From: Escherichia coli
GTDB taxonomy: Bacteria > Pseudomonadota > Gammaproteobacteria > Enterobacterales > Enterobacteriaceae
Assembly: GCF_029227855.1 (NCBI RefSeq)
Contig: NZ_CP074356.1
Length of the DNA stretch: 64,000 nt
Strand: one strand, 5' to 3'
Shown in pieces: positions 29,761-64,000 of the stretch (its first letter is position 1; every line of letters starts with the position of its first letter). The position numbers and the translations under genes were made by a program. Below the pieces are notes generated by a model. It did no database searches, was not told where the DNA came from, and saw only the letters and a program-made list of their open reading frames with translations.

Positions 29761-30470
29761 TGCACAGAAAACCCCCAGCTAGGCTGGGGGTTCCGGAAAG
29801 CTTTCAGCTTTGAGCCAGTTATTAAAACCCCTTTTGATTTGTTAAAACACTTTGCGGTCTGGCAACTGCAAGTGTCAAACAAGAAATCAAAAGGGGGTCC
29901 CAATGGGGAACGAAAAGAGCTTAGCGCACACCCGATGGAACTGTAAATATCACATAGTTTTTGCGCCAAAATACCGAAGACAGGTGTTCTACAGAGAGAA
30001 GCGTAGAGCAATAGGCAGTATTTTGAGAAAGCTGTGTGAGTGGAAAAGCGTACGGATTCTGGAAGCTGAATGCTGTGCAGATCATATCCATATGCTTGTG
30101 GAGATCCCGCCCAAAATGAGCGTATCCGGCTTTATGGGATATCTGAAAGGGAAAAGCAGTCTGATGCTTTACGAGCAGTTTGGTGATTTGAAATTCAAAT
30201 ACAGGAACAGGGAGTTCTGGTGCAGAGGGTACTACGTCGATACGGTGGGTAAGAACACGGCGAAGATACAGGATTACATAAAGCACCAGCTTGAAGAGGA
30301 TAAAATGGGAGAGCAGTTATCGATTCCCTATCCGGGCAGCCCGTTTACGGGCCGTAAGTAACGAAGTTGGATGCAAATGTCAGATCGTGTGCGCCTGTTA
30401 GGGCGCGGCTGGTAAGAGAGCCTTATAGGCGCATTTGAAAAACCTCCGGCTATGCCGGAGGATATTTATT
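29761..30470 (+). mobile_element. IS200-type insertion sequence (IS200/IS605 family), boundaries approximate
   Basis: About 0.7 kb with a single Y1 HUH transposase ORF; left-end hairpin acccccagctaggctggggg and right-end hairpin cctccggctatgccggagg; no terminal inverted repeats, as expected for IS200. Confidence 0.75.
29903..30361 (+). CDS. tnpA: IS200 transposase TnpA (Y1 HUH)
   Basis: 152 aa from MGNEKSLAHTRWNCKYHIVFAPKYRRQVFY; HIHMLVEIPP (HUH) motif; essentially the recalled Salmonella IS200 TnpA. Confidence 0.92.
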   Translation: MGNEKSLAHTRWNCKYHIVFAPKYRRQVFYREKRRAIGSILRKLCEWKSVRILEAECCADHIHMLVEIPPKMSVSGFMGYLKGKSSLMLYEQFGDLKFKYRNREFWCRGYYVDTVGKNTAKIQDYIKHQLEEDKMGEQLSIPYPGSPFTGRK

Positions 30471-44752: not shown

Positions 44753-45811
44753 ATGTTTTCAATGATATTAAGCGGGCTAATTTGTGGTGCTCTGCTGGGA
44801 TTTGTCATGCAGCGTGGGCGTTTTTGCCTGACAGGTGGTTTTCGCGATATGTATATCGCGAAAAATAATCGCATGTTTTACGCCTTGCTGATTGCAATTT
44901 CGGTACAAAGCGTGGGGGTTTTTGCGTTAATTCAGGCGGGCCTACTGACTTACGAAGCCGGGGCGTTCCCGTGGCTTGGTACTGTTATAGGTGGGTATCT
45001 TTTCGGGCTGGGAATTGTTCTGGCGGGTGGATGTGCCACCGGGACCTGGTATCGCGCGGGTGAGGGATTGATCGGCAGTTGGATCGCGCTTTTCACTTAT
45101 ATGGTGATGAGTGCGGTGATGCGTTCTCCACACGCCAGTGGTTTAAATCAAACCTTGCAGCACTACAGTACTGAACATAACTCTATTGCTGAGACTTTTA
45201 ATTTGTCTGTGTGGCCGTTGGTTGCCGTTTTGCTGGTGATAACGCTCTGGGTAGTGATGAAAGAGTTGAAGAAACCAAAATTAAAAGTCGCGACCTTACC
45301 GCCGCGCCGAACCGGGATCGCTCATATTCTGTTTGAAAAACGCTGGCATCCCTTTGTCACTGCTGTACTCATCGGTTTGATTGCGCTTTTAGCCTGGCCC
45401 CTGAGTGAAGCAACCGGACGCATGTTTGGGTTAGGAATCACTTCCCCAACGGCCAATATTCTGCAATTTCTGGTCGCGGGTGACGTGAAATACATTAACT
45501 GGGGCGTTTTCCTGGTGTTAGGGATCTTCGTGGGGTCATTTATTGCAGCCAAAGCGAGTCGTGAGTTCCGCGTTCGCGCAGCTGATGCACAAACAACATT
45601 ACGTAGCGGGTTAGGTGGTGTACTGATGGGCTTCGGTGCCAGTATTGCAGGTGGTTGCTCTATCGGTAATGGACTGGTTATGACTGCAATGATGACCTGG
45701 CAGGGCTGGATTGGCCTTGTATTTATGATTCTCGGAGTCTGGACTGCGTCCTGGCTTGTGTATGTTCGACCGCAGCGTAAGGCGCGACTGGCAACTGCTG
45801 CGGCAAATTAA
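44753..45811 (+). CDS. yeeE: Thiosulfate transporter YeeE/TsuA (YeeE/YedE family membrane protein)
   Basis: 352 aa polytopic membrane protein with conserved Cys-containing loops (GRFCLTGG, GGCATGTWYR, GGCSIGNG). Confidence 0.92.
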   Translation: MFSMILSGLICGALLGFVMQRGRFCLTGGFRDMYIAKNNRMFYALLIAISVQSVGVFALIQAGLLTYEAGAFPWLGTVIGGYLFGLGIVLAGGCATGTWYRAGEGLIGSWIALFTYMVMSAVMRSPHASGLNQTLQHYSTEHNSIAETFNLSVWPLVAVLLVITLWVVMKELKKPKLKVATLPPRRTGIAHILFEKRWHPFVTAVLIGLIALLAWPLSEATGRMFGLGITSPTANILQFLVAGDVKYINWGVFLVLGIFVGSFIAAKASREFRVRAADAQTTLRSGLGGVLMGFGASIAGGCSIGNGLVMTAMMTWQGWIGLVFMILGVWTASWLVYVRPQRKARLATAAAN

Positions 45812-51346: not shown

Positions 51347-51790
51347 TTAGCGACAGCCTTCTTCTGTATGCAGCAAGGCAAAAAGTTCTGCAACTCCATT
51401 GTTATTAACCGCACTGGTTACTAACACATTGTGCGCTCCAGCTTCCCGTAACCAACTTTTCACCAAAGATATTTGTTCCATGCTGGCTAAATCTGCTTTG
51501 GTGACTACTCCAATGACCGGGCGATTCATTGACGAGGTAAAGCCTGGCGAAAAAGGGGACCACGGTGCGTCCGCATTAAGCACCAGGGCGATAATGTCCG
51601 CTTCGCAGGCGCTGACCAACAGAGCACTGTAGAGGCTGCGGTTTTCGAGGTATTCGCCTGGTGTATCAATGGTGGTCGGGGACCAGACGATTGCCTGCGT
51701 TTTCTGATAATGAATATTTTCGCCACGCAGACATTGCGTGAGTGACGTTTTTCCGCACTGGCTGGGGCCGATGAGCATCATACGTTGCAT
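51347..51790 (-). CDS. pduV: PduV, EutP/PduV-family small GTPase associated with the Pdu microcompartment
   Basis: 147 aa; P-loop [10 protein letters not shown]; matches recalled Salmonella PduV. Confidence 0.88.
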
Positions 51791-51794
51791 AACG

Positions 51795-52145
51795 TCAGGT
51801 CCGCGTAATGGGGCAGGCGGTAAAGCGCATCATTTCACCCAGCGTACGGGTAACCTGGCTAAGTGCATATTCAATGGCAGAAACATCACCAGTCAGCACT
51901 ACGGCACCGGTAAAACGATCAAGAAAACCGATCTCTACAGCGCCTGATTTTGTGGCGATATCACATGCGATGATAGATGCTTCGCTGGGGGTAATTGTCA
52001 GAATGCCAATAGCAGAAACGGTGTCTGGTAAACCCAATTTCTTAAACAGATCCTTCCCTGGATTGGCGATGACATGTGCCAGCGTGACCTGCTTACCAGG
52101 GACATATTCCTGAATCATCCGTTCAGTTGTGTGCTGAGTTGTCAT
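51795..52145 (-). CDS. pduU: PduU, BMC shell protein (circularly permuted BMC domain)
   Basis: 116 aa from [32 protein letters not shown]; near-identical to recalled Salmonella PduU. Confidence 0.9.
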
Positions 52146-52699
52146 TATCCCTCCACCATCTGACGCCACATGGCTTCATGTGGACGGGCAATCACCGACC
52201 GATAGACCAACAAACCTTTTTCTCCCGCACGCTCGCTGGCGACAGAGACCGCGTTATTAACATCTGAAATATCGCCAGCAACCACCATGTAGCATTTACC
52301 GCCAATGCCAAAAGCCATATGCACGCGAACAAGAATGACATTCGCAGCTTTGACAGCACAATCGGCAGCGTCAATGCAGGCGGCGACACTCCAGGTTTCG
52401 ACTACGCCGACAGCCCGGTGCTGTTCAACTTGGTTCAGTCCGCTGGTTGCAGAAAGGAGGCTGGGATGAATATTCGGCAGGACAAGACTGTCGACCAGCA
52501 TTTCACCAGCAAGGGAAGCACCGCTGTTGATGGCCTGTTGCACCGCGCCCACATCGCCACCGAGCATCAGCAGAAATTTTCCGGGGCATAGCGTTTTGCT
52601 GACCAGTAACTCAACGTTGGCGCTTTTCAGCATGGCGTCGCCGGTTTCCATCCCTTTCGCGATACTGCTAAGTTCTAAAATACCTACCGCTTTCGACAT
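52145..52699 (-). CDS. pduT: PduT, tandem-BMC-domain shell protein
   Basis: 184 aa with two BMC domains; [29 protein letters not shown]. Confidence 0.9.
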
Positions 52700-52701
52700 C
52701 G

Positions 52702-54045
52702 TTAACCTCTCACAAGCGTAATCGCGTTTTCTGTCACATCGCTGACCATGCCATCAATACTGGCATGAATGGGGGCACCTAATGTGCCGTGTGGAATTTG
52801 ACCTACACATTGCCCATGAACGACGCGATCGCCTTTTTGTACACACGCAATTGCGCTGGCACCGATGTGCTGGCGTAACAATAACGTCACTTTTTCGGTC
52901 TGAGGCACCTGTTCAGACAATGGCGCATCCTGATACCACGGGGTTAAGCCAAGTCTGGTTACCAGCCGTTTTACGGGAATCAGTCGATAATTTGCCATGG
53001 GATCTGCAGGATTTAAGGTACCTTCGTAACGGAGATTTTGTGCGCGTAATTCTTGCTTAAGCAGGCGGTTTATGCGCATTGGTGAAATTCCTACCGGACA
53101 GGCGACGCTGGCGCAGACGTTGCACTCCGAACAGGTGAGCGCCGTCAGTAACAGTTGTGGCGTAGCGAGCTGTTGGTAGTTAACCGCACGTACTAATAAA
53201 TGGGGTGCCAGTTCGTGACCGATTAAATGACGTGGGCAGAGATCGGTACACAAGCGGCATTGCTCACAAACAGTTTTCGCGACGGCAAGTACGCTGCGGT
53301 CATTCTGCATTCGACGTTGGATCAGTGAATGAGAGTTGGGTAAAACCAGCAAGCCGCCAGTGGTTTTGCTGACTGGTGTGTCGAGCGATGTGATCAAACT
53401 TCCCATCATCGGCCCGCCATTGATAAAACCAGGAGCATCCACTGTTGCGCCGCCCGCCAGCGCCAGGACTTCACGTAAAGACATGCCGATGGGGACGGTT
53501 ACCGTTATTGGTTTCGCCACTGCACCATTAACGGTGAGTGTGCGGCGCGTCACTGGATACTGTTGCTCGACGGCTCTGGCAATATTAAGTACGGTTTGAA
53601 CATTATTGACCACCACACCGACGTTAACGGGTAATGCAGCGGGTGGAACACGGCGACCAGTTGCCATCCAGATGGTCAGCACTTCGTCTCCTGCGGGGTA
53701 AACGTCGGGCAAAATATGCAGGCGGATATCCGGTGGTAACAGTGGTGTGAGTGCGTTTATTGCCCGTTGATATTTCTCTTTCAGCGCGATGATTCCGCTA
53801 CTGGCCCCGGTGGCTTTCATCGCATAGTGAACACCGCGAAGCAGGCGGCTGGCTTGCTGCGCCATTAACTGTTGATCCACTTTCAACATTGGTTCGCATT
53901 CCGCCGCATTCACCAGGAACGTGTCAACACGCGCTTGTAGCTTAATATGGGTTGGGAAACCTGCGCCGCCAGCACCCACGACACCAGCTGCCTGTACTCG
54001 CTCGCGGATGGTCTGGTCGTCGCAGGAGGTTAACTCGACGTTCAT
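52702..54045 (-). CDS. pduS: PduS, cobalamin reductase (RnfC/NuoF-like flavoprotein with two 4Fe-4S motifs)
   Basis: 447 aa; GAGGAGFP nucleotide-binding motif; Cys clusters [12 protein letters not shown] and [13 protein letters not shown]. Confidence 0.9.
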
Positions 54046-55154
54046 AACAACTCCTCGAGCAGTTCTGCAATAGCGGTGGCATCAGCCGTACGCGGGTTGG
54101 TACGCAACGTTGCATCCGCCAGTGCCGCCTGAACCATATCTGGTATGCGTATTGACCATTCTGCTTTTTTTTCTTTCAGCACATTGGTAAGAGTCGGTAG
54201 CTTACAGGTTGTTTTAAGCTGTTCAATATGTTGAATAAGTATATTCAGGCTGGCGGTGTCATTGGCGTTGTCCGGGCATAAATGGCACGTTTTCGCCAGC
54301 CGGGCGTAGCGTTTGGCAGCGCGCGGATCGCCAGCATTAAAGCGGATAACCGCCGTGAGCAGGAGCGCATTCGCCAGGCCGTGTGGCAGATGAAACTGTC
54401 CGCCGAGTTGATGAGCAATTGCATGGTTTAATCCCAGTCCAGCTTGGCTAAAGGCCATTCCTGCAAGTGTCGATGCATTATGCATTTTGCCACGGGTGGC
54501 GAGACAATCGCCTTTCTTCACTGCAGTGGGCAGGTATTGAAAAACAATTTGCACGGCTTTTTCGACCAGTGCATCCGTGAAGTCGCTGGCGCGGGGAGAA
54601 ACATAAGCTTCAAGCGCATGGGTTAAAACATCCATCCCGGTATTGGCCGTTATCGCCGGTGGCACGCTGACGATCAGAGATGGATCAAGGATCGCGATAT
54701 CCGGATAAAGTGCATTATCGAAAAGGGGATATTTAATCCCTTTCTCAGGATCGCTGATGACACAAGCACTGGTCACTTCGGAACCGGTACCGCTGGTGGT
54801 AGGAATGGCTACGCAGGTTTCAATTTCAATGCCACACTGGCGACCGAACCAGACAATCGCTTTTGCGGCGTCCAGGGCAGAACCGCCGCCAAAACCGATA
54901 ACCACATCCGGGCGTAAAGTCTGCATTTGCGCAATGCCTTTCACCACGGTCTGGATAGTTGGGTCGGGCGTTATTTCGCTAAAAATACTAAGACGATTAC
55001 TGTCGGGCAGCGCCTGATGCAACGTGTTAATGAGTGGTGAGCGTGCCAGAAAGACGTCGCAAATAATCCAGATGTGTTTATGAGAGAAACGGCTAAGTAC
55101 CTTGAGACTTCCCGGTCCGCTGTATAAACGCGTCTGCAGTGAAAAAGTATTCAT
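54042..55154 (-). CDS. pduQ: PduQ, iron-containing 1-propanol dehydrogenase
   Basis: 370 aa; Fe-ADH family glycine-rich region GFGGGSALDAAKA. Confidence 0.9.
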   Translation of the reverse strand: MNTFSLQTRLYSGPGSLKVLSRFSHKHIWIICDVFLARSPLINTLHQALPDSNRLSIFSEITPDPTIQTVVKGIAQMQTLRPDVVIGFGGGSALDAAKAIVWFGRQCGIEIETCVAIPTTSGTGSEVTSACVISDPEKGIKYPLFDNALYPDIAILDPSLIVSVPPAITANTGMDVLTHALEAYVSPRASDFTDALVEKAVQIVFQYLPTAVKKGDCLATRGKMHNASTLAGMAFSQAGLGLNHAIAHQLGGQFHLPHGLANALLLTAVIRFNAGDPRAAKRYARLAKTCHLCPDNANDTASLNILIQHIEQLKTTCKLPTLTNVLKEKKAEWSIRIPDMVQAALADATLRTNPRTADATAIAELLEELL

Positions 55155-55164
55155 TTCCGTTTCT

Positions 55165-56550
55165 CTAGCGAATTGAAAAGCCGCTGGTTAACACGCAGCG
55201 TCGTGAGCGGGCAAAAGTCCGTGCTGACGTTGTCCCTTCTCCGGTCGGTGTTGCAATGGTAAAGGTCGTAAAGCCTTCGCCGCCGACGCCAATACCCGCC
55301 CAGGAGGGGCCGTTTTTGACAAAGATTGAGGTTTGCATAACGCGTGCGGTAAGGTTGAGCCGTGAGACGTTCTGCGAGTGCATAATTGCCGTGTGGTGCA
55401 AGCCGTCTTCCACTTTCAGCGCCAGGGTGAGAGCGCTATCAAAATCGTTGACCTTCACAATGGGCAGCATTGGCATCAGTTGTTCACAAGTAACCCAACT
55501 ATCATTGGCGTCGACAACAGCAATCAGTAGGCGCGGCGCTTTTGCGGGCAAAGGGAGGCCTGCCGCTTCCAGCAAGGCTGATGGGCTTTTCCCAACCAGT
55601 TTTTTGTTGGCGCTACCGTCTGGCAGGCAAATTGCACGCAATTTCTCCGTTTGCTCATAGTTAAGAAGAAGCGCGCCAAAACTTTGCATCTGCTGAATTA
55701 AATAATCTGCCACTGATGCCACGACAATCAGGCTTTTTTCAGCAATACACGGCAGGTTGTAATCAAATGAAGCGCCGTTGATGATGTCCTCGGCGGCTTT
55801 CACAATATCCGCCGTTTCATCGACGATGCACGGAGGGTTACCCGCTCCGGCACCAATCACTTTCTTGCCACTTTTCATTCCCATGGCGACGATCCCCGGA
55901 CCGCCGGTAATCGCCAGAACGCTGATTTTAGGGTGCGCCATCATCTGTTCGGTTGCAGCAAAGGTCGGTTCAGATACGGTAACGATCAGGTTATGAATGC
56001 CACTACAACGAAACGCGATGTCTTCGATTGTGGTAATCAGTTTTAACGAAACGTATTTGGCTCCCGGGTGTGGACTGAAGTAGACGCTATTACCTGCTGC
56101 CAGCATGCTGATGCTGTTGTTAATGATGGTTTCCGTGGGGTTGGTGCTTGGCGTGACCGAGCCAATAACCCCAAACGGGGAGTATTCAAACAAAACCATG
56201 CCACCATCACCGGTTAGTGCAGTGGTGGTTAAATCTTCAATTCCTGGCGTGTTATCAAGTGCCGCTTTGTTTTTTAGGTACTTATCTTCTTTATTTCCCA
56301 TCCCCGTTTCTTTGGCGCTTTCTTCTGCCAGTTCGGTCAGGCGGGGTATTAATTCTTCGCGAATGGCGCTGATAATGGCGCTACGGGTTTTAAGCGGGCA
56401 CTGTTGAAAGCGTAAAAAGGCCTGGTGTGCTGCGCAGACCGCTTCATCAACAGTCTGGAAAATAGCGTTTCTTTGCATTCGTTGCGTAGCGGGGGCAAGC
56501 TGCTCACGCAGAATATTGCGGATCAGTGTTTCTAATTCAGAGTTATTCAT
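55165..56550 (-). CDS. pduP: PduP, CoA-acylating propionaldehyde dehydrogenase
   Basis: 461 aa aldehyde dehydrogenase with N-terminal amphipathic extension MNNSELETLIRNILREQL. Confidence 0.92.
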   Translation of the reverse strand: MNNSELETLIRNILREQLAPATQRMQRNAIFQTVDEAVCAAHQAFLRFQQCPLKTRSAIISAIREELIPRLTELAEESAKETGMGNKEDKYLKNKAALDNTPGIEDLTTTALTGDGGMVLFEYSPFGVIGSVTPSTNPTETIINNSISMLAAGNSVYFSPHPGAKYVSLKLITTIEDIAFRCSGIHNLIVTVSEPTFAATEQMMAHPKISVLAITGGPGIVAMGMKSGKKVIGAGAGNPPCIVDETADIVKAAEDIINGASFDYNLPCIAEKSLIVVASVADYLIQQMQSFGALLLNYEQTEKLRAICLPDGSANKKLVGKSPSALLEAAGLPLPAKAPRLLIAVVDANDSWVTCEQLMPMLPIVKVNDFDSALTLALKVEDGLHHTAIMHSQNVSRLNLTARVMQTSIFVKNGPSWAGIGVGGEGFTTFTIATPTGEGTTSARTFARSRRCVLTSGFSIR

Positions 56551-57554
56551 TGGTTTACTCCCACGTTAATTGCCGCCATTGCGCTTTGGGCAATATCCAT
56601 GTCTTGTTCAACGCTACCACCGCTGATGCCAAGCCCCCCGAGCAATATTCCGTCACGCCAGAGGGGGAAGCCGCCACCAAAGGTGACGACTTTGCCTTGC
56701 ATATGGCTTTCGAGCCCGTAAAGCGGCGCGCCGGGTTGCACGGTATCAGCAAGTTTGTGGGTTGCCGTTTTCATCGCCACGGCAGTCCAGGCTTTTTTCG
56801 GTGCCAGTTCACTGCTGACCAACAGGGCATCAGGCATCCGCCAGGTAACACTTTCTGTTCCGTTGGCATCAACAATGCTGATGACAACGGGAATATGCAG
56901 TTCATCCGCGCGCATTGCCGCACTACGAATGAGCTGGTGAAGATCCTGAAAAGTGAGCGGCATTGTGCGTTCCTTCAATGCTGGTGTGTGGTTGGCTTTG
57001 TGATAACGTTTTGTGATTTCCTGAATTATCAGGTTTTGATGAGCGACGTTGTCTTCCACGCGGGCGAGGGCATACAGGCAATCGGAAAGTCGGTTGATAT
57101 AGTGCAGCAAAACATTCCGGACGGTGATTTCCGTTGTCAGTTCAACCAGACGTCTTTCAGCACGTCGAGCCACCGTGCGGGCGAAATGCATACGGCTTGC
57201 AGCTTCACATCGCCCAGGCAGAATGAAGCTGTGAACTGGGGGGACGGCGTTCATTGCGCTATCGATCGCGTTTTCCAGCGCGGCAATTTCTTCCGTACCG
57301 ATGTAACGCAGCTGCGCTGACGGCTGTTCGCTTTCACTGGCAAGTTCGGCGCTAAACCAAAATATCTGTTGTTGAATGGCTTCCAGTAAGATGCGATGGC
57401 TTTCGATGGCGGTGGCGCAATAACACAGACTGAGTGTCGCGTTCAGTTCATCCAGCGTGCCATAGGTTTCGACACGTAGATGAGTTTTGCTGACGCGCTG
57501 TCCGGTAAATAAAGACGTACTTCCTGAATCACCTGTTCGGGTATAAATTGCCAT
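56547..57554 (-). CDS. pduO: PduO, ATP:cob(I)alamin adenosyltransferase with C-terminal DUF336 domain
   Basis: 335 aa; MAIYTRTGDSGSTSLFTGQRVSK N-terminus typical of PduO-type ATR. Confidence 0.92.
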   Translation of the reverse strand: MAIYTRTGDSGSTSLFTGQRVSKTHLRVETYGTLDELNATLSLCYCATAIESHRILLEAIQQQIFWFSAELASESEQPSAQLRYIGTEEIAALENAIDSAMNAVPPVHSFILPGRCEAASRMHFARTVARRAERRLVELTTEITVRNVLLHYINRLSDCLYALARVEDNVAHQNLIIQEITKRYHKANHTPALKERTMPLTFQDLHQLIRSAAMRADELHIPVVISIVDANGTESVTWRMPDALLVSSELAPKKAWTAVAMKTATHKLADTVQPGAPLYGLESHMQGKVVTFGGGFPLWRDGILLGGLGISGGSVEQDMDIAQSAMAAINVGVNQ

Positions 57555-57565
57555 CTTTCAGCTCC

Positions 57566-57841
57566 TTAGCGCGAAAGCGTATCGACAATGCCGACCACTG
57601 CCAGGTCGATGGCCTCGTTAGGGCCGGAAAACACATGTCTGGCGCTGGAACCACTGCTGAGGAGTACCAACTCACCAACGCCTGCGCCGACTGAATCAAC
57701 GGCAACTTCGTCGCCGGTTAATGGCGTGAGAGGCAGTTCGCCGTCAGCACTGACCCGGCGAACCAGCAGCAGTTTTTTCCCGATCAGAGATGGTGATTTT
57801 TGCGTGGATACTACCGCGCCAGTGACTCGAGCCAGATGCAT
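57566..57841 (-). CDS. pduN: PduN, BMC vertex (pentamer) protein of the EutN/CcmL family
   Basis: 91 aa; [17 protein letters not shown]. Confidence 0.9.
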
Positions 57842-57844
57842 AGG

Positions 57845-58336
57845 TTACTCCTGCCTAATTAACTGAATATTTCGGGTAATTGCCGCTTCACGAGCCAGTG
57901 CGGTCACACAACATTTCCGCTGTAACACCAGTATTCCCGAGCTTAACTGTGCGATATCGGCATAACTTAAAAGTCGATCACGATGAAGGTAGATCGGTTG
58001 CCCTTGTTCGTCGCACCAGCTTAGCGGTAGACGGGCGAGAGTCTTCAATTCAATGGCGTTCAGGAAATGACGCTGCAACGACAATTGAATGTGCATTCCC
58101 CAGGCTAACGCTTCGTGTATCTGGATTGCTGCTCGATCTGACGTTTCGTTCTCCGCAAGTTGTCGCAGCAGCGGCAGATCGACATATCGGATTTGTAATG
58201 ACGCATACTGATGAACGCTCTCTTGAACGCTGGCGTCTCGCAGTTGAAAAACAGTCAGCACGAGTGCTTTTCTCGCACGTTGTTTAAGGCGAAAAACCAC
58301 CTCGTCAACAATACGTTGCATCAGCATGTTATTCAT
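57845..58336 (-). CDS. pduM: PduM, microcompartment structural protein
   Basis: 163 aa; position between pduL and pduN; length matches recalled Salmonella PduM. Confidence 0.8.
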   Translation of the reverse strand: MNNMLMQRIVDEVVFRLKQRARKALVLTVFQLRDASVQESVHQYASLQIRYVDLPLLRQLAENETSDRAAIQIHEALAWGMHIQLSLQRHFLNAIELKTLARLPLSWCDEQGQPIYLHRDRLLSYADIAQLSSGILVLQRKCCVTALAREAAITRNIQLIRQE

Positions 58337-58965
58337 GGCACTGACACCAGTGTGGCAAAAACGTCAGGGCTATCAGCGCCTGCGGCGTTGGCCTCATCGG
58401 TATCAATATGCATTTCAAGACGCATATCCGGAGAGACGCGAACAGCGACGTTTTCGAATATCAGTCGTCGCTCACCACCTTCAATGGCAACCGCCACTTT
58501 ATCGCCATGCGTAACGCCATAAATCAGGGCATCCAGCGGAGACATATGAATATGCCGTTGCGCGACAATGACGCCAGATGTGATCTCCAGTTCCGCAAAT
58601 GGGCTTATCAAACGAATCCCCGGAGTGCCGCTGAGATCGCCTGACATGCGTAGCGGGGCGGTGATCCCTAACGTTCTGGCGTCCGTCCGGGAAATTTCCA
58701 CCTGGCTTGCATTGCGTAGCGGCCCCAACAAGCGAACGTTGTGCAATTTGCCTTTTGGTCCCTCCAGCGTAACAACCTGTTCAGCAGCGAATTGGCCAGG
58801 TTGCATTAACGGCTTTTTCTCGCTAATCGGTTGTTCAGGAAAAAGACGCAAATAATCCGCTGTTGAAAGATGAATATGGCGACTGGAAACGCCCAGTGGG
58901 ATAGGGCGCTCGCGCATCTCATCCAGAATCTGGCTCACTGTTTCCTGCAGGGTTTGTTTATCCAC
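58333..58965 (-). CDS. pduL: PduL, phosphate propanoyltransferase
   Basis: 210 aa; N-terminal MDKQTLQETVSQILDEM amphipathic peptide followed by PduL/EutD-type domain. Confidence 0.9.
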   Translation of the reverse strand: MDKQTLQETVSQILDEMRERPIPLGVSSRHIHLSTADYLRLFPEQPISEKKPLMQPGQFAAEQVVTLEGPKGKLHNVRLLGPLRNASQVEISRTDARTLGITAPLRMSGDLSGTPGIRLISPFAELEITSGVIVAQRHIHMSPLDALIYGVTHGDKVAVAIEGGERRLIFENVAVRVSPDMRLEMHIDTDEANAAGADSPDVFATLVSVP

Positions 58966-58967
58966 TG

Positions 58968-59390
58968 CTACTCCCCTCGCTTATTGGCGTACAGGCAAAG
59001 TGAGCGGGGCTCACCTTTTTGCCGCTGACATGCCGGGTCAAGACACAAATTACAACTGATAATCTCTGAGGTGACGGTTGTTGCTGGTGTTTTGCTTGTT
59101 TCAACCGTCACGGTCAATGCTTCAATTGTGTGGGGCAGAATGCCGTCTCCCGGGCGGGCAATCACTTTGTGTGCGACAAGGCCATTTCGCTGTCCGGCGA
59201 AACTGGCTCCCGTCGCGATCGCCGCATTAACCGAGGCGACGTCACCGGTGATTTTGATGAGCGTCCAGCCTGAGCCATTGGTCTTCTCAAGGCCAACCAG
59301 CGTGATGGACGCGGCTTTTGCCATAGCGTCTGCGCAACTGATGGCGAGAGCCAGACCACTGACTTCAAGTAATCCCAGTGATTGCTTCAC
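58968..59390 (-). CDS. pduK: PduK, BMC shell protein with Cys-rich C-terminal extension
   Basis: 140 aa; N-terminal BMC domain MKQSLGLLEVSGLALAISCADAMAKAA; C-terminal CNLCLDPAC...C. Confidence 0.88.
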   Translation of the reverse strand: MKQSLGLLEVSGLALAISCADAMAKAASITLVGLEKTNGSGWTLIKITGDVASVNAAIATGASFAGQRNGLVAHKVIARPGDGILPHTIEALTVTVETSKTPATTVTSEIISCNLCLDPACQRQKGEPRSLCLYANKRGE

Positions 59391-59413: not shown

Positions 59414-59689
59414 TTATGCTGATTTAGGTAAAATAGCCTCAACATCACTGTGTGGGCGCGGGATGACATGGCAGGATTTCACTTCGCCAACGGCGCTTGC
59501 GGCGGCGCTTCCTGCATCAACGGCGGCTTTTACTGCGCCAACATCGCCACGGACCATCACCGTAATCAGACCCGAACCAATCTTTTCATAGCCAACCAGC
59601 TGCACGTTGGCGGATTTAACCATGGCATCTGCAGCTTCAATTGCGCCAACTAACCCTTTTGTTTCAACCAGTCCTAGTGCGTTGTTCAT
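59414..59689 (-). CDS. pduJ: PduJ, major BMC hexamer shell protein
   Basis: 91 aa; [40 protein letters not shown]. Confidence 0.9.
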
Positions 59690-61890: not shown

Positions 61891-62409
61891 TTAATCGTCG
61901 CCTTTCAGTTTTTTGCGCTCGACATAAAGTTCCGCAGCTTCACGGACAAATGCAGCACAAATTTTGGCCTGATAACGCCGTTCAAGATCGTCAGCAATGG
62001 CAATAAGTTCTTGCTTAGTCGAACGATAAGGGCGTAACGCATTGTAGATTTCGAGGATGCGATCATCCGGTACTGAGGTAAGCTCAGCGGCGCGTTCAAA
62101 ATTCATCGCCAGGCGATCGCGACCAGCATCTCTGGCAATCGCGGCCTGAATACGCAATGTTTCAGGGGTTATACGCATATCCTGGGCGGTGACGTTATCG
62201 CTGAGTACATTTTCCAGAGTGAAATCGTCGAGCGTTTTATTGGTCGCCGTTTTAACCCATTCCGGATGTTTATTTGCCAGCGGATAATCCGTCACTTTGG
62301 CGCTCTGTATTGACGCGTTGGGTGCCGCAGAAACAGGAGCTGCATCCTGTAAACTGTTCATGCGATTCAACACGTCCCTGACCATCGACTCAATTGCATC
62401 GGTATTCAT
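61891..62409 (-). CDS. pduE: PduE, B12-dependent diol dehydratase small (gamma) subunit
   Basis: 172 aa; matches recalled PduE. Confidence 0.9.
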   Translation of the reverse strand: MNTDAIESMVRDVLNRMNSLQDAAPVSAAPNASIQSAKVTDYPLANKHPEWVKTATNKTLDDFTLENVLSDNVTAQDMRITPETLRIQAAIARDAGRDRLAMNFERAAELTSVPDDRILEIYNALRPYRSTKQELIAIADDLERRYQAKICAAFVREAAELYVERKKLKGDD

Positions 62410-62423
62410 GAAGGTTTCCTTTG

Positions 62424-63092
62424 TTAAAACGTCACGCGCAGTTCTTGCGGTTTTTTGCCAGTGACCACGTACTTCGTCTCTTTAATATGCAAAATGGCAG
62501 ATTTGGCCTGGTATTTCGGCCGCGCCATTTGATCGTTGAGGGTCGGCACCGGTTGTGGAGACTCACGCTTTGCATAACGCGCGGCGTTTTTGCCAATCTG
62601 ACGATAAGTTTCCAGCGTCAACAAAGGCGCTTGTGGGAATAGTTCCAGGTTAGACAAGGGAGGAAGACCTTGCTGGTGGATAACCGTTGTGCCTTTCGAC
62701 TGAATACCGATAGCAATACCTGAACCACTAAGACGATCGCCTTCGACTGCTACGAATGCGACATCGGACGATTTAAAGCAGCGAATCACACGGGCTTTAA
62801 TGCCTTCTTCTTCGATACCAGCAATCACTTCGCGCAAGATGTTTTTATGCGGAATACCGATGATATTGACGGTTTGCGCCAGGCCGAACGCCGGGCCTAC
62901 AGCAATAATGACTTCATCTTGCTGAGTGCCTTGTTGGGCTTCGCCAATTTCGGCCAGAAAAGTTCCGGTATCTGGCGCGGAAGAGACAGTTGCACAGGCA
63001 GGTGCGCGAAATGAAACGGGCTTGTCGCTGGTTTGCATTTCTGCCAGCACGTCTTCGATAATCTGACGCAGTAATTTTTCGTTAATTTCCAT
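62424..63092 (-). CDS. pduD: PduD, B12-dependent diol dehydratase medium (beta) subunit
   Basis: 222 aa; N-terminal [19 protein letters not shown] amphipathic peptide. Confidence 0.92.
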
Positions 63093-63101
63093 TTCTCACC
63101 C

Positions 63102-64000
63102 TTAGTCAATTTCGTTGGGATCAAGTGCACCGGGAATATTTTTGATCTCTTCCCAGCGTTCCCCTTGCAGGCGGTAACCTGTAGCCGGTCCGGCGTAATC
63201 ATTGACGTCATTGACCGCAGAGAGCACTTGTCCGTCATCGACGATGATGGCTGAGGTATGGAGATAATCGCCGGTCAGTTTTGCTTTTTGCATGTTGAGC
63301 ATGTCTTGGGCGACATCGGTAAAACCGCCTTGCGCCAGGGCTTTCACCACTTCCAGGCTGTTCCGGTTTTTATTGATAATCTCCTGGGCGAACTTGATGT
63401 CTTCCACAATATTGCGCTCAGGCATATCTTTTGAACCGTGGGCATAGGTTGCCGCTTCGACTTCTTCATCGGTAATAGGCGGTAGTCCCATACCGGCAAA
63501 GACAGCCTGTAAAGCGCGAGCGGCTTTATTGCGGATAGCGATAACATCTTCTTCGCGTACTGGTCGCAGGCCGCCATCAACCTTCAGGTCACGCTGAATG
63601 ACGTTGTAATCATCGAAGTCTTCAGCATCTTCGTTTGAACCAGCAAACATGTTGTCGTAGTTCGGCACAGCGGAAAAACCGGAAGAGATAAAGTCGGTAC
63701 CTGGCAGAAACTGCATCAGGAAACGTGCGGTACGGCGCATATCCGAGTGGGTAAAGGTCTGGTCATTACTGGAGGCGCATTCCAGATCCAGCGATGAGCA
63801 AATTAAGTTTTCCGCTAATACTGCGCGGATGCCTGATGGCACAGCCGATGGAACACCGATGCAGCTTACCGAACCATTCTGTAGACCCTGAACTCCTGCG
63901 GCTTTGGTGATGTAAATGCAACGAGCCTCGAGATAAAGCATTGATTTGCCTTCCGCGTAACCCATCTGTACTTCAGAGCCGGAGCCGGAAGTAAAGCGCA
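63102..64000 (-). CDS. pduC: PduC, B12-dependent diol dehydratase large (alpha) subunit, C-terminal part (5' end outside window)
   Basis: Frame open to the window edge; roughly 299 C-terminal codons including ...GPATGYRLQGERWEEIKNIPGALDPNEID-stop. Confidence 0.9.
   Translation of the reverse strand, partial: RFTSGSGSEVQMGYAEGKSMLYLEARCIYITKAAGVQGLQNGSVSCIGVPSAVPSGIRAVLAENLICSSLDLECASSNDQTFTHSDMRRTARFLMQFLPGTDFISSGFSAVPNYDNMFAGSNEDAEDFDDYNVIQRDLKVDGGLRPVREEDVIAIRNKAARALQAVFAGMGLPPITDEEVEAATYAHGSKDMPERNIVEDIKFAQEIINKNRNSLEVVKALAQGGFTDVAQDMLNMQKAKLTGDYLHTSAIIVDDGQVLSAVNDVNDYAGPATGYRLQGERWEEIKNIPGALDPNEID

Follow-up and report, generated by a model that had tools for sequence, protein, structure and literature searches.

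Do the first residues of PduD and PduL, two enzymes encoded by a propanediol-utilisation locus of Escherichia coli, act as signals that bring these proteins into a microcompartment? The initial annotation of this DNA proposed that both N-termini are amphipathic extensions, absent from homologues that are not enclosed, through which the diol dehydratase and the phosphotransacylase are packaged. Here we follow up this proposal in the window, that is, the whole stretch of 64,000 nucleotides that was analysed, and in related loci. We conclude, with a probability of about 0.93, that residues ~1-18 of PduD and ~1-20 of PduL serve as encapsulation peptides for the bacterial microcompartment of 1,2-propanediol utilisation (Pdu). 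Reports on the encapsulation peptides of PduD, PduP and PduL date from 2010 to 2015, and microcompartment engineering uses these peptides routinely. The result is therefore of little significance as a discovery; its value lies in the annotation and in a genomic control for the association of extension and compartment.

Between positions 58000 and 64000, the window is 100% identical to strain JNEC-KY178, and over the whole 64 kb only 6 positions differ. The RefSeq annotation was transferred to the window by adding 45999 to the positions of the reference record L001. Along this part of the E. coli chromosome, the colanic-acid and O23 O-antigen clusters are followed by the his operon and then by the pdu operon. 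The latter is carried by the minus strand from ~51347 to the window end, from pduV through pduC, which is truncated by the window edge; in the RefSeq annotation pduB, pduA, pduF and pocR are found just outside the window, past pduC. The shell genes around PduD and PduL comprise pduJ, pduK, pduN, pduT and pduU inside the window, and pduA and pduB just outside. The order pduC-pduD-pduE-pduG-pduH is present, with the genes of the large and small subunits and of the reactivase flanking pduD. The features discussed below are the following:

51347..57554, minus strand: remaining pdu genes of the window (pduO, P, Q, S, T, U, V), encoding cargo and the shell proteins PduT and PduU (RefSeq annotation)
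56497..56550, minus strand: PduP N-terminal peptide, residues 1-18, MNNSELETLIRNILREQL (open reading frame, NF011927 match, motif at residue 6)
57566..57841, minus strand: pduN, pentameric vertex protein (NCBIfam, RefSeq)
58268..58336, minus strand: PduM N-terminal peptide, residues 1-23, MNNMLMQRIVDEVVFRLKQRARK, the structural-protein signal ssPduM (NF011957 match, motif at residue 6)
58333..58905, minus strand: PduL phosphotransacylase core, residues 21-210 and stop codon (NF011652, 5cuo)
58906..58965, minus strand: PduL encapsulation peptide, residues 1-20, MDKQTLQETVSQILDEMRER (translation, GTG start, AlphaFold2 helix, absent from short homologues)
58968..59390, minus strand: pduK, shell protein with a BMC domain (NCBIfam, RefSeq)
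59414..59689, minus strand: pduJ, hexameric BMC-H shell protein of the receiving compartment (NCBIfam BMC-family matches, RefSeq)
62350..62409, minus strand: PduE N-terminal extension, residues 1-20, MNTDAIESMVRDVLNRMNSL (motif at residue 6, comparison with DhaB3-type subunits)
62424..62954, minus strand: PduD catalytic core, residues 47-222 and stop codon (common to non-compartment glycerol dehydratase beta subunits)
62955..63035, minus strand: PduD linker, residues 20-46 (poorly conserved and of variable length in alignments, predicted disordered)
63039..63092, minus strand: PduD encapsulation peptide, residues 1-18 (translation, AlphaFold2 helix 5-21, conservation)
63102..64000, minus strand: pduC, large subunit of diol dehydratase, lacking its 5′ part at the window end (annotated in RefSeq for the record with 100% identity)

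The pdu locus was found in 642 of 5426 complete E. coli genomes (~12%), in every case chromosomal and in most with 95-99% identity; it is thus accessory in this species. In this strain the operon ends with pduV (51347..51790, minus strand), and no pduW or pduX is annotated beyond it. Past pocR (L001 22409..25749), a cobalamin riboswitch, a hypothetical ORF and cobUST are all that is present, without cbi genes, so that the strain presumably relies on an imported corrinoid to run the compartment. Elsewhere in the window, an IS200C transposase gene (29903..30361, plus strand) has inserted at the border of the O23 O-antigen cluster, between gnd and ugd, and tsuA/yeeE (44753..45811, plus strand) is an intact ORF of 352 amino acids. 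The nearest RefSeq record has this last gene annotated as a pseudogene, interrupted by an internal stop; its sequence differs from that of the window at window position 44906.

The PduD open reading frame (62424..63092, minus strand) encodes 222 amino acids. Its start is identical to the one annotated in RefSeq and has a AAGGGTGAG ribosome-binding site directly upstream, after the pduC stop codon. Positions 63039..63092 translate exactly to the residues 1-18 initially given for PduD, and residue 19 is M, as was also noted there. The protein was assigned as the medium subunit of diol dehydratase by its full-length family match to NF011616 (propanediol/glycerol dehydratase medium subunit; 391 bits for a cut-off of 248) and PF02288, and by the flanking subunit and reactivase genes. 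Moreover, it is 96% alignable with the diol dehydratase beta subunit of K. oxytoca (PDB 1dio_B, E = 1e-125).

PduL (58333..58965, minus strand) is a protein of 210 amino acids for which RefSeq also annotates the identical start. The start codon is a GTG, which is read as M by the initiator and as V in the raw translation. A GAGGGGAG ribosome-binding site is located 6 nt upstream of it, and its position is homologous to an ATG in 53 orthologous loci, other Escherichia among them. The N-terminal sequence that had been proposed for PduL, MDKQTLQETVSQILDEM, is therefore correct. The GTG start (58963..58965, minus strand) is shared with the identical reference record L001 and with L046, a MAG labelled Citrobacter whose pdu sequence is Escherichia-like and near-identical, and it may lower PduL translation. 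With two PF06130 domains, the protein is a phosphate propanoyltransferase: it matches NF011652 over residues 22-202 (256 bits for a cut-off of 209) and is homologous to a solved PduL structure, PDB 5cuo_A, which aligns to the same residues 22-202 with E = 4e-49.

When aligned with homologues that do not belong to microcompartments, both N-termini proved to be extensions, PduD relative to short beta subunits and PduL relative to short homologues. First, the glycerol dehydratase beta subunits 1mmf_B and 1iwp_B (194 amino acids) align from PduD residue 47-48, at their own residue 16-17, and tblastn alignments to dha loci begin at PduD residue 43-50. The excess of PduD over the glycerol dehydratase beta subunits amounts to ~31-45 residues. 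An alignment of 28 sequences separates 14 long forms, with a conserved helix and a variable linker, from 14 short forms (179-197 amino acids) that begin just before the core; the short-form beta subunits come from Citrobacter, Klebsiella, Yersinia, Clostridium, Romboutsia, Tepidibacter and Bacillus. In one Klebsiella entry of 191 amino acids (P0288), a DhaB2 N-terminus is followed by a C-terminal part that is identical to the one of PduD; this entry is most likely an assembly chimera, although a recombinant between dha and pdu is possible.

Second, the NCBIfam PduL profile and PDB 5cuo align to PduL from residue 22 only, the 5cuo structure having been solved after removal of the putative encapsulation peptide (PMC4784909). 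The stand-alone PduL homologues retrieved by an exhaustive HMMER search of 1.84 billion representatives have 2-9 residues before the core and align from PduL residue ~17-22 only. Hidden extensions of the short forms are excluded: at the extension-less loci, either the preceding gene stops 10-30 nt short of the start codon, or there is an in-frame stop 10 codons upstream. The same search yielded many PduL-domain proteins of ~760-780 amino acids, with the domain at the C-terminal end and without encapsulation peptide (P0121, P0151, P0159, P0162, P0164 and others). The upstream region of P0121, the only such protein whose sequence was inspected, resembles an acetate-kinase fusion as judged by eye; PduL proteins fused to acetate kinase and devoid of encapsulation peptides were already noted by Erbilgin et al. 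2016 (PMC4784909).

If the extensions are signals for a compartment, they should be found where shell genes are found. For PduD, we considered one genome per species and the best 80 of 461 relatives. All 80 of these loci encode the N-terminus xINExLLRxIIxxVL, and 79 of the 80 have one or more shell genes in the flank, the exception being a contig of 3.3 kb. Shell genes were searched with PduJ and with PduB, PduA, PduT and PduU. With PduJ alone (E <= 1e-5), 8 loci had appeared to be devoid of shell genes; 7 of them have pduB directly upstream of pduC. In Veillonella (L057-L067) and in Streptococcus australis (L063), only a PduB-type shell gene adjoins pduCDE, the PduA/J-type genes being located beyond 6 kb or not within the flank; even so, the PduD peptide remains conserved there (MAEINRDVLRSIILDVLQEM). 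Two further beta subunits, from Firmicutes, have a core nearer to that of glycerol dehydratase but do possess the helix, and each of them is encoded in a complete microcompartment locus that includes four PF00936 genes as well as PF03319.

The loci without extension give the opposite picture. The dehydratases of this class were found by a search with a DhaB2 fragment, followed by a lookup of the encoding contigs. Within 10 kb of the four dha-type loci, no PF00936 or PF03319 gene was detected, and there was no tblastn shell match at E <= 0.1. These loci contain the genes of the dehydratase and of its reactivase; at three of the four, an iron alcohol dehydrogenase, likely a 1,3-propanediol dehydrogenase, is encoded next to them. 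The four extension-less PduL loci had no shell neighbours either, on contigs of only 2.5-6.6 kb, so that distant shell genes are possible for them; their neighbours are housekeeping genes such as those of acetate kinase, DeoC and SAM synthetase.

Altogether, shell genes accompany 81 of the 82 extension-bearing PduD loci and none of the 8 extension-less loci (4 dehydratase, 4 PduL), which bears out the proposed link between the extension and the compartment. For the dehydratase set, the hypergeometric probability of this association is ~2e-6 when the loci are treated as independent, which they are not; as the sampled loci are phylogenetically related, the counts overstate their independence. 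The observation that would contradict the proposal, an extension in homologues from organisms lacking microcompartments, was made at none of the loci examined, as judged by flank or contig. This makes a clean and reproducible genomic control, in which the extension and the shell genes are found together across at least 80 species.

The PduD extension is made of two parts of very different conservation. Among 79 non-identical sequences (78 orthologues and the E. coli reference), the mean identity to E. coli PduD reaches 79% in residues 1-19 and 83% in the core but only 34% in the linker (residues 20-46), and the entropy of the linker is 2.38 versus 0.60 for the core. Within residues 1-19, N4, R9 and V15 are conserved in at least 99% of the 79 sequences, and L8, I11, I12 and L16 in at least 95%. 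AlphaFold2, run with the 28-sequence alignment, predicts a helix at residues 5-21 (pLDDT ~72), followed by a segment with pLDDT below 50 (23-42) and by the first strand of the core at residue 46. Residues 20-46 are thus a flexible and poorly conserved linker to the catalytic domain. The pairs L7/L8, I11/I12 and V15/L16, together with M19, alternate so as to form one non-polar face.

For PduL, AlphaFold2 predicts a helix at residues 3-18 (pLDDT 88-91) and a core from residue 22, with a mean pLDDT of 95. Only ~3 residues (ERP) separate helix and core, so that a flexible linker is weakly represented here. The peptide has a mean identity of 48% across orthologues versus 68% for the core; L6, V10, L14 and M17 are retained, and the non-polar face consists of L6, V10, I13/L14 and M17.

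The predicted helices agree with the amphipathic character that was initially attributed to both extensions, and so does a motif of alternating hydrophobic pairs known from the literature. This motif, h-xx-hh-xx-hh, begins at residue 6-8 in PduD, PduP, PduE and PduM, and a looser form of it begins at residue 6 in PduL. It is found at the N-termini of 5 of the 16 pdu proteins of the window versus none of the 46 non-pdu ORFs, a test that is post hoc since the pattern was written after the sequences had been seen. Only 4 occurrences were counted in 15,491 background residues. PduQ (54042..55154, minus strand) has one internal match to the strict motif, probably by chance. The hydrophobic moment is less telling: the Eisenberg moments of residues 2-19 rank between the 84th and the 96th percentile among all 18-mers of the window proteins (shuffle p 0.05-0.3), with PduD and PduL at the 90th-93rd, and are not significant alone. 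Amphipathicity is thus weak evidence by itself, and the claim is carried by the extension, its conservation and the genomic context. Each of the features of an encapsulation peptide that can be computed was nonetheless found here, namely an extension, a locus with shell genes, and a helix with the motif, together with a linker that is strong in PduD and weak in PduL.

The initial annotation was right about PduD and PduL but gave an incomplete account of the operon, as it left out the peptides of PduP and PduM and a look-alike on PduE, all encoded in the window. The PduP peptide, the archetype of its kind, completes the three signal sequences that the operon has on enzymes; it corresponds to ssPduP, defined as PduP residues 1-18 (PMC12108088). 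As for PduM, its residues 1-23 are sufficient for targeting in Salmonella (PMC12108088). PduE is a different case. Its extension (62350..62409) begins MNTDAIESMVRDVLNRM, and DhaB3-type small subunits align from PduE residue 31-41 only. It resembles that of PduD in having the same motif and in being absent from DhaB3-type small subunits, but differs in being reported as non-targeting: in Salmonella, the PduE extension does not target GFP, is said to be required for activity and packs against the enzyme body (PMC12108088). Replacement of ESMV by ETLI made the Salmonella ssPduE functional (PMC12108088), and E. coli PduE retains ESMV at residues 7-10. By analogy, the E. coli extension is probably a look-alike rather than a targeting signal. 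As PduE has the motif and yet fails to target in Salmonella, the motif alone is no proof of function, and it does not justify annotating the N-terminus of PduE as a targeting signal.

Orthologous peptides give the packaging function its experimental footing. Residues 1-18 of PduD and 1-20 of PduL from Salmonella and Citrobacter are reported to be necessary and sufficient for encapsulation (PMC12108088 for the Salmonella peptides). The Pdu signals were first found by the same alignment argument as the one used in the initial annotation, and the role of PduD is the packaging of PduCDE, PduC piggy-backing on PduD (PMC12108088). The D18, P18 and L20 tags of C. freundii were used to direct foreign cargo: D18 and P18 colocalised with recombinant microcompartments, L20 coaggregated, and L20-Citrine showed no clear colocalisation with recombinant shells (PMC7221423). 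The latter result points to the PduL peptide as a weak signal, and among the three enzymatic signals it is the one reported as weakest (PMC7221423, PMC12108088). It is only present in homologues from microcompartment loci, and its removal abolishes aggregation (PMC4784909). For the E. coli peptides, the targeting function is suggested by their similarity to these orthologues (16 of 18 residues of Salmonella PduD 1-18, 17 of 18 of the Citrobacter type). Together with the extension and its co-occurrence with shell genes, the orthologue reports support the packaging of diol dehydratase and phosphotransacylase that had been proposed. In terms of annotation, the Pdu compartment of this strain is thus probably complete and functional, with intact cargo-targeting signals.

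How would such peptides work? Each of them would fold as a short alpha-helix whose hydrophobic pairs form one non-polar face. This helix would be tethered to the catalytic domain by a flexible linker of ~25 residues in PduD and of only ~3 residues in PduL. The hydrophobic face would contact other core cargo during assembly, and it may bind to the shell from the luminal side as well, for instance in the groove between tessellating PduA/PduJ hexamers. PduCDE diol dehydratase would in this way be enclosed via its PduD subunit, and PduL directly. Shell docking and core association both have support in the literature and are not mutually exclusive. We propose that the peptides are targeting helices that act via their hydrophobic face, probably with core association as the primary mode and shell contact as a contribution; this division between the two modes is inferred.

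A more extreme version of core association has somewhat less than an even chance of being right. The peptides would mainly be aggregation or condensation tags that nucleate an enzyme core, the shell would enclose this core via the N-terminus of PduB, and any contact of PduD and PduL with the shell would be incidental. Signals target the core in a pduB deletion strain and puncta are lost when ssPduD is deleted (PMC12108088), tagged proteins coaggregate (PMC7221423) and the oligomerisation of PduL depends on its peptide (PMC4784909). The PduB N-terminus encoded in the neighbouring E. coli sequence (MSSNELVEQIMAQVIARV) also has the hydrophobic-pair motif. However, the direct binding of PduL to PduA, which is blocked by a mutation in the groove (PMC11157265), suggests that shell contact is more than incidental. 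Furthermore, signal-GFP fusions are diffuse in a pocR deletion strain (PMC12108088), indicating that they do not self-aggregate without other Pdu proteins.

Conversely, the peptides could act only by direct docking to the shell, on the termini of PduA, PduJ or PduK or in the groove between hexamers, with no role in contacts between cargo proteins. PduL binds only tessellated PduA, with a saturation of one PduL dimer per PduA hexamer, that is, three PduL dimers for each trimer of hexamers, and the A63R substitution in the PduA groove abolishes this binding (PMC11157265). The PduP substitutions E7A, I10A and L14A abolish encapsulation, according to work cited in PMC11157265, and the AMVKSA motif of helix 1 is present in both PduJ and PduA of E. 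coli. Nevertheless, in Salmonella lacking pduB, signal-GFP fusions follow the detached enzyme core to polar bodies and not the shells (PMC12108088), the D18 and P18 tags coaggregate cargo without shells (PMC7221423), and PduL becomes soluble once its peptide is removed (PMC4784909). An exclusive docking to the shell therefore appears rather doubtful, and we retain targeting helices for which the core comes first and the shell contributes.

There is also a slim chance, to which none of the present data point, that E. coli departs from Salmonella in its details, either because its substitutions (Ala17 in PduD; the polar face Q4-T5-Q7-E8-S11-Q12 in PduL) shift the efficiency of encapsulation or because the PduE extension does target in E. 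coli. If the substitutions had this effect, the enzyme stoichiometry of the E. coli compartment would differ from that of Salmonella.

That the N-terminal extensions are not targeting signals at all, and instead serve activity, folding or regulation, seems highly improbable. The precedent is PduE: its extension has the motif, does not target GFP, and is described as necessary for activity (PMC12108088). Against a similar role in PduD and PduL, diol dehydratase was crystallised with a truncated beta subunit, the 200-residue chain 5yrt_B aligning from PduD residue 42 only, and the title of Tobimatsu 2005 (cited in PMC4784909) states that the beta and gamma subunits have N-terminal regions which lower solubility. 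In addition, PduL of R. palustris without its peptide keeps a comparable activity (PMC4784909), the AlphaFold2 model has the PduD helix apart from the core, on a disordered tether, and the extension is confined to microcompartment loci among those examined. Finally, an artefact is scarcely conceivable: the GTG start of pduL and a hydrophobic moment that is not significant by itself might point to a mis-called start codon or a chance amphipathic stretch, but a mis-called start is ruled out by correctly spaced ribosome-binding sites, identical RefSeq starts and a pduL start position common to 53 ATG-starting orthologous loci, while the PduD helix is 79% conserved in 79 sequences and the motif is absent from 46 background N-termini.

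We thus return to encapsulation peptides, and a comparison with known systems places them precisely. The nearest relatives without the signal are the DhaB2/GldB glycerol dehydratase beta subunits (1mmf_B, 1iwp_B), which have a homologous core with ~60-64% identity over PduD residues 47-222. Unlike PduD, the dha-type beta subunits have neither the N-terminal helix nor the linker; their loci are without shell genes and their small subunit is shorter (140-146 amino acids). Within the Pdu system, ssPduP/P18, ssPduM and ssPduB share with the PduD and PduL peptides the motif of alternating hydrophobic pairs at residues 6-18. They differ in being carried by unrelated proteins, those of PduB and PduM being signals of structural proteins, and in a pairwise identity of at most 25% (PMC12108088).

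The PduD peptide of this strain is the orthologue of ssPduD/D18 of S. enterica LT2 and C. freundii, attributed to Fan & Bobik 2011 in the works that cite it (PMC12108088, PMC7221423), with the same operon position and the same helix-linker-core organisation. Its residues 1-18 are identical to those of S. enterica (P0005) at 16 of 18 positions and to the Citrobacter type (…VLSE) at 17 of 18; residue 17 is Ala in E. coli versus Arg or Ser, and the linker differs, for instance at C33. Likewise, the PduL peptide is the orthologue of ssPduL/L20 (Liu et al. 2015, as cited in PMC12108088; PMC4784909; PMC11157265), carried by the orthologous enzyme as a helix directly before the PF06130 core. Compared with sequences from Salmonella subsp. 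arizonae and diarizonae, taken in place of LT2, and from Citrobacter, it is the more divergent of the two, with different polar positions (QTLQETVSQI versus QQLETTVTKV in Citrobacter) and with a GTG start. Nothing in either peptide departs from the known system, and both are already known signals, ssPduD/D18 and ssPduL/L20, in their E. coli form.
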